Source: an uncultured Candidatus Saccharibacteria bacterium
GTDB taxonomy: Bacteria; Patescibacteriota; Minisyncoccia; RBG-13-40-8-A; JAUWHN01
Direction: 5' to 3'
NCBI GenBank assembly: GCA_964426965.1
Contig: CAYRSI010000001.1
Coordinates: 1 to 47,797 of the forward strand
DNA length: 47,797 nucleotides
The notes beneath the pieces are model-generated. The model had not been told where the DNA came from and ran no database searches. It was given only the letters and a program-made list of their open reading frames with translations. Positions 43,504 to 45,001 of the stretch are shown here, in pieces. The position numbers and the translations under genes were made by a program. Positions within the stretch are counted from its first letter, which is position 1, and each line of letters begins with the position of its first letter.

Positions 43504-43561
43504 TTTATACCTCCGATTTATTTAATTATAAAAGACCAAACCTTTTTTGGGTCTTCATTTT

Positions 43562-43590
43562 AGATTAACAATCTCAAAAACAAAAGTCAA
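43562..43590 (-). promoter_or_regulatory. Promoter P1 of the MoxR operon: TTGACT-17-TAATCT
   Basis: On the minus strand, -35 is at 43585-43590 and -10 at 43562-43567. About 40 nt are near-identical to P2 (44805-44845). Confidence 0.7.
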
Positions 43591-43617
43591 CCCCGTACTA
43601 CGGAGTCAAGTCAATTG

Positions 43618-43683
43618 GGTCGACCTCAAAATCCTAAATGCTCACCATGCCCTATAAATTCAAACTGCCCTAAGATAATTTAA
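43618..43683 (+). pseudogene. Relic 3' end of a second HhH/FCL glycosylase-like gene
   Basis: Translates to GRPQNPKCSPCPINSNCPKII*, a near copy of the end of the 45002-45748 gene. 43619-43715 aligns to 45684-45780 including the terminator. Confidence 0.8.
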
Positions 43684-43685
43684 AA

Positions 43686-43718
43686 AATAGCAGACGATGA
43701 TCAATCTCTGCTATTTTA
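43686..43718 (+). terminator. Terminator copy belonging to the relic
   Basis: AATAGCAGA-N12-TCTGCTATTTT. Confidence 0.7.
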
Positions 43719-43754
43719 TTTATTTTATTTCTCCCCGTTACTCGGCCTGTGCTT

Positions 43755-44756
43755 TTATCTTGCCAAATGCTCTAAGTTATGTTCTTTCAGAAAATCCCAA
43801 ATTATCTGGGTAGGGTTACCAAAGATATACTCTTCAGAATAGTTAGTAACTCCACAGTACATAATAGTTACAATCTCTCCCTTAATGTTAATTACAGAGC
43901 CACCGGAATCACCAGGTCCACCAGGATAAACTGTCCATAATGGAAATTTTTCCCGGGAAAACCGCTCTAATTTTCCTTCAAAATCTTTTTGGAAATATTC
44001 ATCCAGCTTGGTCATGTACCCAAAACGACTGAAAAATGCAAATCCACCAGTAGAGCCAGTAAAGATTACTTTATCTCCCAGTTGAAGCGTGCCGGGTTTT
44101 GCAATTTTCAAACCGGGCAATCCCAAATCCTCTTCCATTTTGATTATCGCATAGTCATTAAAATGAACCCCTTGGGTTATTAGTTCACATTCGGTCCTAG
44201 CTACTAATTCTGCTTCAATGGGATGGTCAACGCCTTCTTTGAAAACCCACGTATACATATAATTGTACTGGCGCTCTTTATCAAATAGATGATTTACAGT
44301 AAGAATGTTGTTATCTTTTATAATCATGCCCGCTCCAAGATATGCAACTGTTACCAATCTGGTTTCCTTGTCCTTCTTGATAAAAATAGGCACATTTTCT
44401 ATATCCCGATAATTTTTAATCTGCTTTATCTTATCTATTGTAATAAGATATTCTTTTTTGGGCATTTGATAATAAGTAGGATTATCTGCTCCAAGATAGG
44501 CAACTGTTACATCTTGGGTTTCTCTGTTTTGTTCAATAAATATAGGTATATCCTGATAATTCCTGACCTGCTTTATCTTGTTTATTCTTCGAAGATATTC
44601 TTGTTCATACATCTCATAGTAGGTAGCAACAGCTACTCTATGGCCTATAAGTTTTTGAATTGTACTTTCTGGTGCAAATTTAGAACTGTATTTCCAAGTA
44701 GAGCAAGCTACGAGAAAAATTACTAAAAGTCCTATAATCAAAATTTTGCCTTTCAT
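43755..44756 (-). CDS. trypsin-like (S1/chymotrypsin-fold) serine protease lipoprotein with a tandem 52-aa N-terminal repeat
   Basis: Lipobox LVAC, TVNHL (His), NDYAIIK (Asp), GDSGGSV (Ser). A 156-bp tandem duplication has units starting at 44332 and 44488. Confidence 0.8.
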   Translation of the reverse strand: MKGKILIIGLLVIFLVACSTWKYSSKFAPESTIQKLIGHRVAVATYYEMYEQEYLRRINKIKQVRNYQDIPIFIEQNRETQDVTVAYLGADNPTYYQMPKKEYLITIDKIKQIKNYRDIENVPIFIKKDKETRLVTVAYLGAGMIIKDNNILTVNHLFDKERQYNYMYTWVFKEGVDHPIEAELVARTECELITQGVHFNDYAIIKMEEDLGLPGLKIAKPGTLQLGDKVIFTGSTGGFAFFSRFGYMTKLDEYFQKDFEGKLERFSREKFPLWTVYPGGPGDSGGSVINIKGEIVTIMYCGVTNYSEEYIFGNPTQIIWDFLKEHNLEHLAR

Positions 44757-44808
44757 TTTATCCTCCCTTTATTTTTTTAATTCTCAAAGAGCAAAAACTC
44801 GTTATTTT

Positions 44809-44837
44809 AGATTAACAATCTTGAAATCAAAAGTCAA
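44809..44837 (-). promoter_or_regulatory. Promoter P2 of the protease gene: TTGACT-17-TAATCT (paralog of P1)
   Basis: On the minus strand, -35 is at 44832-44837 and -10 at 44809-44814. Confidence 0.7.
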
Positions 44838-44919
44838 CCCCGTAGTGAATTTTTGACTAATTTTTCAATTAAATTTGGTCCGACGTTACGTCGGACCCAG
44901 TCAAAAATCTACTACGGGG
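44838..44919. repeat. 21-bp inverted repeat flanking the palindrome GGTCCGACGTTACGTCGGACC, immediately upstream of P2
   Basis: CCCCGTAGTGAATTTTTGACT (44838-44858) against AGTCAAAAATCTACTACGGGG (44899-44919). Central palindrome at 44877-44897. Confidence 0.8.
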
Positions 44920-45001
44920 TCAAGTAAGAATTGACATAACCCTTATAAATTGCTACACTATTTGGATGCCCTTTTAAAAAATTATACCCAAGAGAGGAAA
45001 A

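Follow-up and report, generated by a model that had tools for sequence, protein, structure and literature searches.

Two near-identical promoters at a Saccharibacteria moxR locus: a probable scar of segmental duplication and mobile-element insertion

Background

In a 47,797-nucleotide stretch of DNA (the window) from an uncultured Candidatus Saccharibacteria bacterium, two transcription units on the minus strand, a moxR operon and the trypsin-like lipoprotein (protease) gene that lies upstream of it, are preceded by nearly the same promoter region. The promoter of moxR is called P1 here and that of the protease gene P2, which carries a palindromic block in addition. What does such a similarity mean? 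It could reflect co-regulation, as a sequence-only reading of the locus had proposed, or it could be a trace of the history of the locus. The observations described below point to the second answer: the similarity between P1 and P2 was very probably left behind by a recent duplication of a segment, together with the insertion of a small element of mobile type.

Results

Two copies of one core promoter

Comparison of the window with itself revealed a direct repeat, 43552-43597 versus 44799-44844, in which 41 of 46 positions are identical. P1 (43562-43590, minus strand) consists, as read from the sequence, of the -35 box TTGACT (43585-43590), a 17-nt spacer and TGT followed by the -10 box TAATCT (43562-43567); P2 (44809-44837, minus strand), which has an ortholog in the metagenome contig L092, is built in the same way, with TTGACT at 44832-44837 and TAATCT at 44809-44814. 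At both sites AAAAT follows TAATCT on the minus strand, and a stretch further upstream, CTACGGRGTCAAGT..AATT, is identical at 17 of 22 positions. The sequence-only reading had described a near-identical module of about 40 nt, this promoter motif and the shared upstream stretch, and in these respects it was accurate. It had also proposed a genome search for the module. When the 34-nt promoter core was searched for in the genome (G000; 929 kb, 92% complete, a metagenome-assembled genome (MAG) of 120 contigs), P1 and P2 were the only matches even with 8 mismatches allowed. Likewise, TTGACT-17-TAATCT occurs at these two sites only, as compared with 181 sites for the generic pattern TTGACW-16..18-TANNNT. 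A generic strong promoter is ruled out by the copy number of two; a 16-nt match in C5 falls within a coding region.

A four-way alignment of P1, P2 and the corresponding regions of L092 and of genome G001 showed that the -35 box and the extended -10 box (TTGACTTTT, TTGnTAATCTAA) are invariant and the spacer is variable. P1 and P2 thus have the appearance of sigma-70-type promoters with an extended -10 box. They were missed by the generic promoter scan because TAATCT fits TATAAT at 3/6 positions only.

An 82-nt element within the -35 box of P2

P1 and P2 differ in length by 67 nt, which is the difference between an 82-nt element at P2 and a 15-nt stub at P1. An extra block of about 66 bp had been noted at P2 before; the length difference is real, but its polarity has to be reversed, as P1 appears to have lost the block, keeping a stub between both copies of TTGA. 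The inverted repeat claimed for the block is present: 22-nt arms at 44837-44858 and 44899-44920, 91% complementary, enclose the palindrome GGTCCGACGTTACGTCGGACC at 44877-44897. As single-stranded DNA (ssDNA) the element folds with -30.5 kcal/mol (z = -8.9). Its boundaries are at 44838-44919, its ends read CCCCGTAGTGAATTTTTGAC...GTCAAAAATCTACTACGGGG, and it is flanked by the target duplication TCAA/TCAA (TTGA) at 44834-44837 and 44920-44923. Having terminal inverted repeats, a target duplication, small size, no coding capacity and multiple copies (see below), it appears to be an element of the MITE type (miniature inverted-repeat transposable element).

The orthologous protease promoter in L092 reads ...TATGTCAATTTTTAT-TTGA-CTTTTGATTTT..TTGTTAATCTAA..., that is, it has a single TTGA and lacks the element. 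We interpret this site as the empty site of the P2 element, and the P2 block as an insertion within the -35 hexamer, whose 4-bp target duplication would have restored TTGACT. Upstream of P2 a divergent promoter of an HhH-GPD gene was found by pattern scan (44931-44959, plus strand; TTGACA-17-TACACT with TG), and 63 nt of its region are kept in L092 with 90% identity. Only ~7 nt separated the two divergent -35 boxes prior to the insertion.

At P1, the segment 43587-43609 reads TCAA, CCCCGTACTACGGAG (the 15-nt stub, 43591-43605), TCAA; the genome contains 8 stubs of this kind, this one included. On the minus strand this is TTGA/CTCCGTAGTACGGGG/TTGACT; the stub consists of two element tips, with the GTAGTA arm tip oriented as in P2. 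Since P1 keeps both TTGA copies and a stub of the same orientation, its source would have been a P2-like sequence that already held the insertion, and the copy would have collapsed afterwards. The stub (43609-43587) together with the T-run that follows it was classified as terminator-like by pattern scan, and a hairpin is found at the same place in G001. A terminator role of the stub is possible as a secondary function, which leaves its origin unexplained.

Other identities of the palindromic block were considered. A known RNA family or riboswitch was rejected, as an Rfam scan of the block gave no meaningful match; an integron attC-like site and a CRISPR-like repeat were dropped from the sequence, the first for the absence of the R''/R' consensus and the second for the absence of repeat-spacer periodicity. 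Two observations concern the central hairpin of the element. It is identical to the core of another stub with 4-nt flanking repeats, TCAA/CTCCGACGTAACGTCGGAG/TCAA, at 11264-11282 of the window. The stem core CGACGTnACGTCG is common to this hairpin (AAAACAGYCYCGACGTNRCRTCGGRRCTGTTTTT) and several intrinsic terminators (G000:C2:13919, C11:4398, C119:944).

A decayed copy of a larger block between the protease gene and moxR

Sensitive self-BLAST showed that the similarity extends beyond the promoters. In the spacer that separates the protease gene from moxR, the segment 43619-43717 matches 45684-45780 with 90% identity, and the latter covers the HhH-GPD terminator together with the 3' end of the gene. 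The first part of the copy (43617-43683, plus strand) is a pseudogene remnant that holds the final 21 codons of HhH-GPD: it agrees with 45682-45748 at 63/67 nt (94%) and translates as GRPQNPKCSPCPINSNCPKII up to the stop codon, compared with WCRPQNPKCSLCPINSNCPKII at the end of the intact gene. It is followed by a copy of the HhH-GPD terminator hairpin (ATAGCAGA..TCTGCTAT; 43684-43735), with 36/52 positions identical and the stem conserved. Located downstream of the stop codon of the protease gene, this copy can serve as its predicted terminator. The intact HhH-GPD gene with its terminator (45002-45790, plus strand; coding sequence 45002-45748) is in all probability the source of the duplicated block. 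It is assigned by Pfam HhH-GPD, is EndoIII-like and has an FeS-cluster C-terminus; matches of the protein to NCBIfam TIGR03252/nth were under the cut-off.

These similarities suggest that the spacer upstream of moxR is a decayed copy of a block with the order terminator, HhH-GPD gene, palindrome and promoter. Relative to its source, the copied block has two internal deletions, one of 67 nt of the palindrome and one of ~750 bp covering the HhH-GPD promoter and most of the coding sequence. The identity of the promoter core (41/46) is not above that of the adjoining HhH-GPD remnant (63/67). Downstream of the -10 boxes the two leaders are identical at 31/51 positions only. The moxR leader (43504-43556, minus strand), in which a hairpin GAAGACC..GGTCTT is followed by a U-run and the ribosome binding site, aligns with the leaders of G001 and G004, and seems to be native to moxR, outside the duplicated block; the protease leader (44757-44808, minus strand), native to its own gene, aligns with that of L092. 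As each leader aligns with its own ortholog and the promoter is no better kept than the remnant, the similarity between P1 and P2 reflects the recency of the duplication and not selection.

Gene order in related genomes was compared as well. Orthologs of moxR were found in G004 (90% amino acid identity) and G001 (65%), and those of the protease in L091 and L092 (78-80%; L092 78%) and G001 (60%). In G004, the gene for a DUF4015 protein (80% amino acid identity) is the one directly upstream of moxR, and neither a protease gene nor an HhH-GPD or Y1 transposase gene separates the two. About 3 kb with the Y1, HhH-GPD and protease genes and both promoter copies is extra in G000. The order in G001 is protease, hairpin, TTGACT-17-TGCTAATCT, moxR, and the G001 protease promoter differs. 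In L091 and L092 the protease gene is not adjacent to moxR.

The CCCC...GGGG element family

The arms of the P2 element conform to the pattern CCCGTAGT(GA/AG)ATTTTTGAC. G000 has 2 full copies of this arm type, the second of which (C2:6936-7016) is flanked by TTGA and abuts the -35 box of the secE-nusG promoter. When 301 genomes of the class were searched with the arm pattern, using the reversed pattern as control, the matches proved to be concentrated in a sister family of the same order (47 in G008, 16 in G011, 11 in G005 and 10 in G012); the control gave 0-1 matches in these four genomes and 3 or fewer in any genome searched. The 47 matches in G008 correspond to roughly 20-25 elements, the arms being always paired, one GA arm with one AG arm. 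Arm variants are compensated at 3 base pairs, with 0 broken cells.

Twenty-two of the 23 sister-genome copies analysed are located exactly at a gene start, mostly in the arrangement ...TATAAT-N6-9-TATG/element/TATG-ORF (ORF, open reading frame); rpsL and an L6-like gene are among the genes downstream of them. TATG is the flanking repeat in most cases, the others being TATGA, ATGA, TGAA, TGGAA and TTGA; some copies are nested, and the orientation of the element interior is constant relative to the downstream gene. The idea that these copies are in-frame coding extensions was rejected, the ATG-to-ATG lengths not being consistently multiples of three. Long-subfamily copies of 126-143 nt (e.g. L043, L047, L052, L059; G011, G005) contain an internal GCACGGGGYATAAT, which is -10-like, beside a copy of the element tip, and a hairpin (TTTCGACAT..ATGTCGAAA) that forms locally, in competition with the long-range pairing of the arms; these features suggest an outward promoter or alternative RNA structures before the start codon of the host gene.

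A scan of G000 for inverted repeats with CCCC...GGGG ends yielded 19 elements of 59-307 nt. Clean 4-nt repeats flank 17 of them; of the other two, one is flanked by a 7-nt repeat and one by no repeat. Overall, the family numbers at least 20 copies in G000, besides the stubs. The 8 stubs, of 15-34 nt, have the same ends and flanking repeats, and none was found in 5 shuffled genomes. Stubs such as that of P1 could be excision footprints or products of hairpin collapse. The three G000 elements longer than 290 nt contain one GIY-YIG ORF each (PF01541), and the nearest solved relatives of the encoded proteins are the UPF0213 proteins 1zg2 and 1ywl. The arm tips of these three elements are common with those of ORF-less copies, and two arm types of G000 other than that of P2 each comprise GIY-YIG-bearing as well as ORF-less copies. 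A 295-nt copy in G008:C4 with exact P2-type arms has a GIY-YIG ORF that lacks a canonical start codon.

Other G000 members of the family are found inside coding regions. Four elements of 59-62 nt with CCCCGCAC tips (G000:C17:11534-11595; C5:10084-10145; C5:27181-27242; C5:16692-16750) each contribute, with the 4-nt duplication, an in-frame stretch of 63-66 nt that is read through. Three of them lie in prepilin-like genes, where their insertion restores the G/FT cleavage motif (e.g. MKQRGFT[PHLLRGNKEINFKHIRKGAGFT]IVEI...), and the fourth copy is in frame within an epimerase-like ORF. The prepilin leader at G000:C17:10340-10637 contains a 298-nt GIY-YIG element, whose ORF continues in frame into the pilin (...KKKKKGEG/FTLTEILIVLAVL; 399-aa frame). 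The C17 nuclease could be made as the cleavable leader of a pilin. GIY-YIG ORFs were also seen at tRNA genes: at G000:C47:2161-2600 and C110:1100-1791 they begin 1-2 nt past the tRNA 3' end (tRNA-Ser GGA in C47) and are followed by GGGTTCG, two GTCATTCGAC-type hairpins and AATCCCACC. These two loci look like insertions in the tRNA T-loop with a duplicated 3' part of the tRNA.

Taking these features together, there is in our estimate an even chance that the P2 block and the P1 stub are non-autonomous members of an undescribed class of minimal transposons. Such a class would be characterized by CCCC...GGGG inverted ends and a 4-bp T-rich target duplication; its autonomous forms of ~285-330 bp would encode solely a GIY-YIG nuclease of ~85 aa (UPF0213/Ssn-like), and its insertions would rebuild what they interrupt, whether a -35 box (TTGA/C), a start codon (TATG) or, in frame, the prepilin G/FT motif.

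Comparison with known systems

A literature search for MITEs of the candidate phyla radiation, GIY-YIG transposons or CCCC...GGGG/GIY-YIG elements found no description of such a family; the closest report was that of Chenal et al. (2025; PMC11893778). The small GIY-YIG ssDNA nucleases called Ssn are encoded by genes flanked by NTS/SRM hairpin repeats, and the NTS-ssnA-NTS layout was regarded by the authors as insertion-sequence-like; the role demonstrated was modulation of natural transformation, and no transposition was shown (PMC11893778). The resemblance to the elements described here lies in a small single-domain GIY-YIG protein whose gene is located between repeats that form hairpins and also occur dispersed in the genome. 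The repeats themselves are different, however: NTS/SRM is a self-hairpin of ~30 nt (CGTCATTCCCGCG..GCGGGAATC), whereas the P2 family has terminal inverted repeats of 13-24 nt and a target duplication, and the P2 arms are pairs set 40 or more nt apart. The matches found for the G000 GIY-YIG proteins were Pfam GIY-YIG and the UPF0213 structures. The hairpins at the C47 and C110 loci resemble the published NTS/SRM core GTCATTC.

Among bacterial MITEs, Correia/NEMIS of Neisseria, ERIC and RUP are about 80-150 nt long and land in promoters or create them. The P2 family is like them in being short, free of ORFs and multi-copy, in having terminal inverted repeats that form a long hairpin, in its flanking target duplications and in its location near promoters and gene starts. 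In contrast to these elements, its sequence is unrelated, with CCCC...GGGG ends, its insertion regenerates a -35 box or start codon, and its only ORF-bearing relatives encode a GIY-YIG nuclease and not a DDE transposase. The target duplication, TA in Correia, is 4-bp and T-rich here (TTGA/TCAA, TTTA, TGAA, TATG).

The third comparison concerns the REP/REPIN-RAYT system (Di Nocera et al. 2013; PMC3733652), with which the P2 element has in common GTAG near both tips and two inverted arms forming a long hairpin; a RAYT-like Y1 gene is located 0.9 kb from the element in the window. Unlike in REP/REPIN sequences, GTAG is inside the stem and not an unpaired tag, the arms are not self-palindromic, and a target duplication is present. 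No P2-type arms were found beside Y1 genes at the 10 Y1 loci whose flanks were fetched, and GGACAT..ATGTCC hairpins bound the Y1 genes of the window and of G008, the two whose flanks were read. G005 has the elements and no detectable Y1 gene. A REP/RAYT origin was rejected, as two defining features fail (repeats flanking the RAYT gene, and the lack of target duplication typical of the IS200/IS605 type) and the distribution is also contrary. The Y1 gene of the window seems not to be linked to the P2 palindrome.

Finally, other G000 members of the family resemble the Rickettsia palindromic elements (RPEs) in being in frame inside coding regions (the prepilin leaders and the epimerase-like ORF described above). 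The P2 copy differs from RPEs in its intergenic location, and the sequences are unrelated. RPEs are not known to have a nuclease partner.

Neighbouring genes

The moxR gene (42436-43503, minus strand; AAA_3 ATPase, Pfam AAA_3 E=1.8e-46) heads the operon moxR-DUF58-(343 aa)-VWA. The hairpin with U-run in its leader (CUUUUAUAAUU) is at 43527-43556 of the window, with counterparts in G001 (L020:57-90) and G004 (L018:3870-3890); the stem shows compensated changes between genera (GACC/GGTC versus AGGG/CCCT) and may be a leader attenuator or stabiliser. The protease gene (43755-44756, minus strand; Pfam Trypsin_2 E=1.5e-10) has the lipoprotein signal MKGKILIIGLLVIFLVAC (…LVAC), read in the translation. 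It contains an internal tandem duplication of ~150 nt (44332-44638, 73% identity), the same one being found in L092, and the two repeat modules, of the form YY.M...EYL...K.IK.Y..I(ENV)PIFI..D.ET..VTVAYLGA, precede the trypsin-like domain.

The IS200/RAYT-like Y1 transposase gene (45841-46536, within 45824-46590, minus strand) encodes 231 aa and has AAGGACATTSAATGTCCTT hairpins at both bounds, a third copy of the hairpin being inside the gene at 46361. Its paralogs are multi-copy, with 7 in G000 and 6 in G012, and the G008 copy has ATGTAGGACATCGTATGTCCTACAT hairpins with a GTAG tag. The DUF4015 gene, assigned by Pfam, is at 46578-47696 on the minus strand.

Discussion

Proposed history of the locus

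The observations can be arranged into four steps. Initially, as the L092 ortholog shows, the protease promoter TTGACT-17-TGT-TAATCT would have stood back-to-back with the divergent HhH-GPD promoter. In the G000 lineage the 82-nt element would then have entered the -35 hexamer after TTGA; TTGA was presumably duplicated in the process, and TTGACT was restored on the spacer side. The evidence for this second step is the empty site and the target duplication. In the third step, the path of which is conjectural, the block containing the HhH-GPD terminator, gene, element and promoter would have been copied between the protease gene and the moxR leader, where it may have replaced the native moxR promoter or recombined with it; a pre-existing similarity of the moxR promoter may have served as one recombination end-point. 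Finally, the redundant copy would have decayed. The loss of 67 nt of the palindrome interior would have left the 15-nt stub between the two TTGA copies, and the deletion of ~750 bp of the HhH-GPD gene and promoter would have left the last 21 codons and the terminator, which now would end the protease transcript.

Several points weigh against this reconstruction or leave room within it. Tandem duplication followed by deletion and Campbell-type integration both fit the rearrangement. The G001 moxR promoter is already about 80% similar to P1 and P2 (manual count), which makes the moxR-side boundary of the copied block (43552-43590) uncertain, so that part of P1 could be native. The element could affect P2 through an UP-element, DNA topology or antisense termination. 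The genome, finally, is a MAG of 120 contigs.

Alternative explanations

The similarity of the G001 promoter, which has TTGACTTTT...TTGCTAATCTAAAA in common with P1 and P2, is also an argument for gene conversion or convergence, i.e. that both genes had similar promoters of their own, homogenised by a short tract, and that no larger block was duplicated. The lack of homology between the P1 and P2 leaders past the -10 box would agree with such a tract. However, such a tract would have had to bring in 180 nt, with the 3' remnant of HhH-GPD, the terminator, both TTGA copies and the stub between them, and would then amount to a copied block; the two internal deletions would be left unexplained. 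We regard this possibility as improbable.

Somewhat more doubtful still is the explanation originally favoured, that P1 and P2 represent a conserved co-regulation module in which one regulator serves the shared upstream element and core promoter and the palindrome of P2 is an extra operator. What stands of that proposal is that two transcription units have the same core promoter: -35 box, spacer length and -10 box are identical at both sites and unique in the genome, and the adjacency of protease and moxR in G001 too hints at a functional link. The selected module and the palindromic control layer are not supported. L092 lacks the palindrome at its orthologous protease promoter, and G001 has an unrelated hairpin at that place; the palindrome belongs to a dispersed mobile-type repeat with target duplication. 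What had been taken for an upstream element consists of an element tip, the duplicated target and flank. Furthermore, the promoters do not exceed the neighbouring pseudogene remnant in identity, the protease gene is apart from moxR in L091 and L092, and the two G001 promoters differ from each other.

That a chimeric contig joining strain variants produced the similarity is hardly credible, although a 120-contig MAG and the break of a G001 contig exactly at the hairpin upstream of the moxR promoter might raise the suspicion. The copies are ~10% diverged, differ by two large indels and lie 1.2 kb apart, between intact genes, in the interior of a 47.8-kb contig. Diverged and rearranged copies are not what an assembler creates, since it collapses repeats or breaks at them. 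The flanking synteny from DUF4015 to moxR, moreover, matches G004.

Functional consequences

If segmental duplication and element insertion shaped the locus, the protease gene and the moxR operon would each be driven by practically the same core promoter, and the two are likely to be expressed similarly, as a side result of their promoters' shared origin. Some transcription from P2 may also read through into moxR, because the intervening terminator is a long-loop hairpin. We see no evidence that the palindrome at P2 is an operator, as the orthologous promoter lacks the block, which belongs to a family of dispersed repeats. The main effect of the element at P2 would be to push the divergent promoter of HhH-GPD, along with any DNA upstream, 86 bp further off; as side effects, the block may influence the spacing of the divergent promoters or serve as a hairpin terminator or insulator.

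Conclusions

The locus illustrates that identical promoters can arise by duplication and do not imply a regulon, and that a "palindromic operator" can be a transposon; its story is historical instead of regulatory. As a regulatory finding it is ordinary. Its value is that of a dated and polarised example of an apparently undescribed family, one that allows the empty site, the full copy and the collapsed stub to be set side by side. The very small GIY-YIG nuclease is a candidate for a new type of transposase which, if confirmed, would add a class and provide a link to the Ssn ssDNA nucleases. The family shows selfish DNA surviving in a genome of ~0.9 Mb, where the target duplication restores a -35 box, a start codon or a signal-peptide cleavage motif. 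If this interpretation is true, target-rebuilding insertion would let such elements persist in ultra-small genomes with almost no spare DNA.

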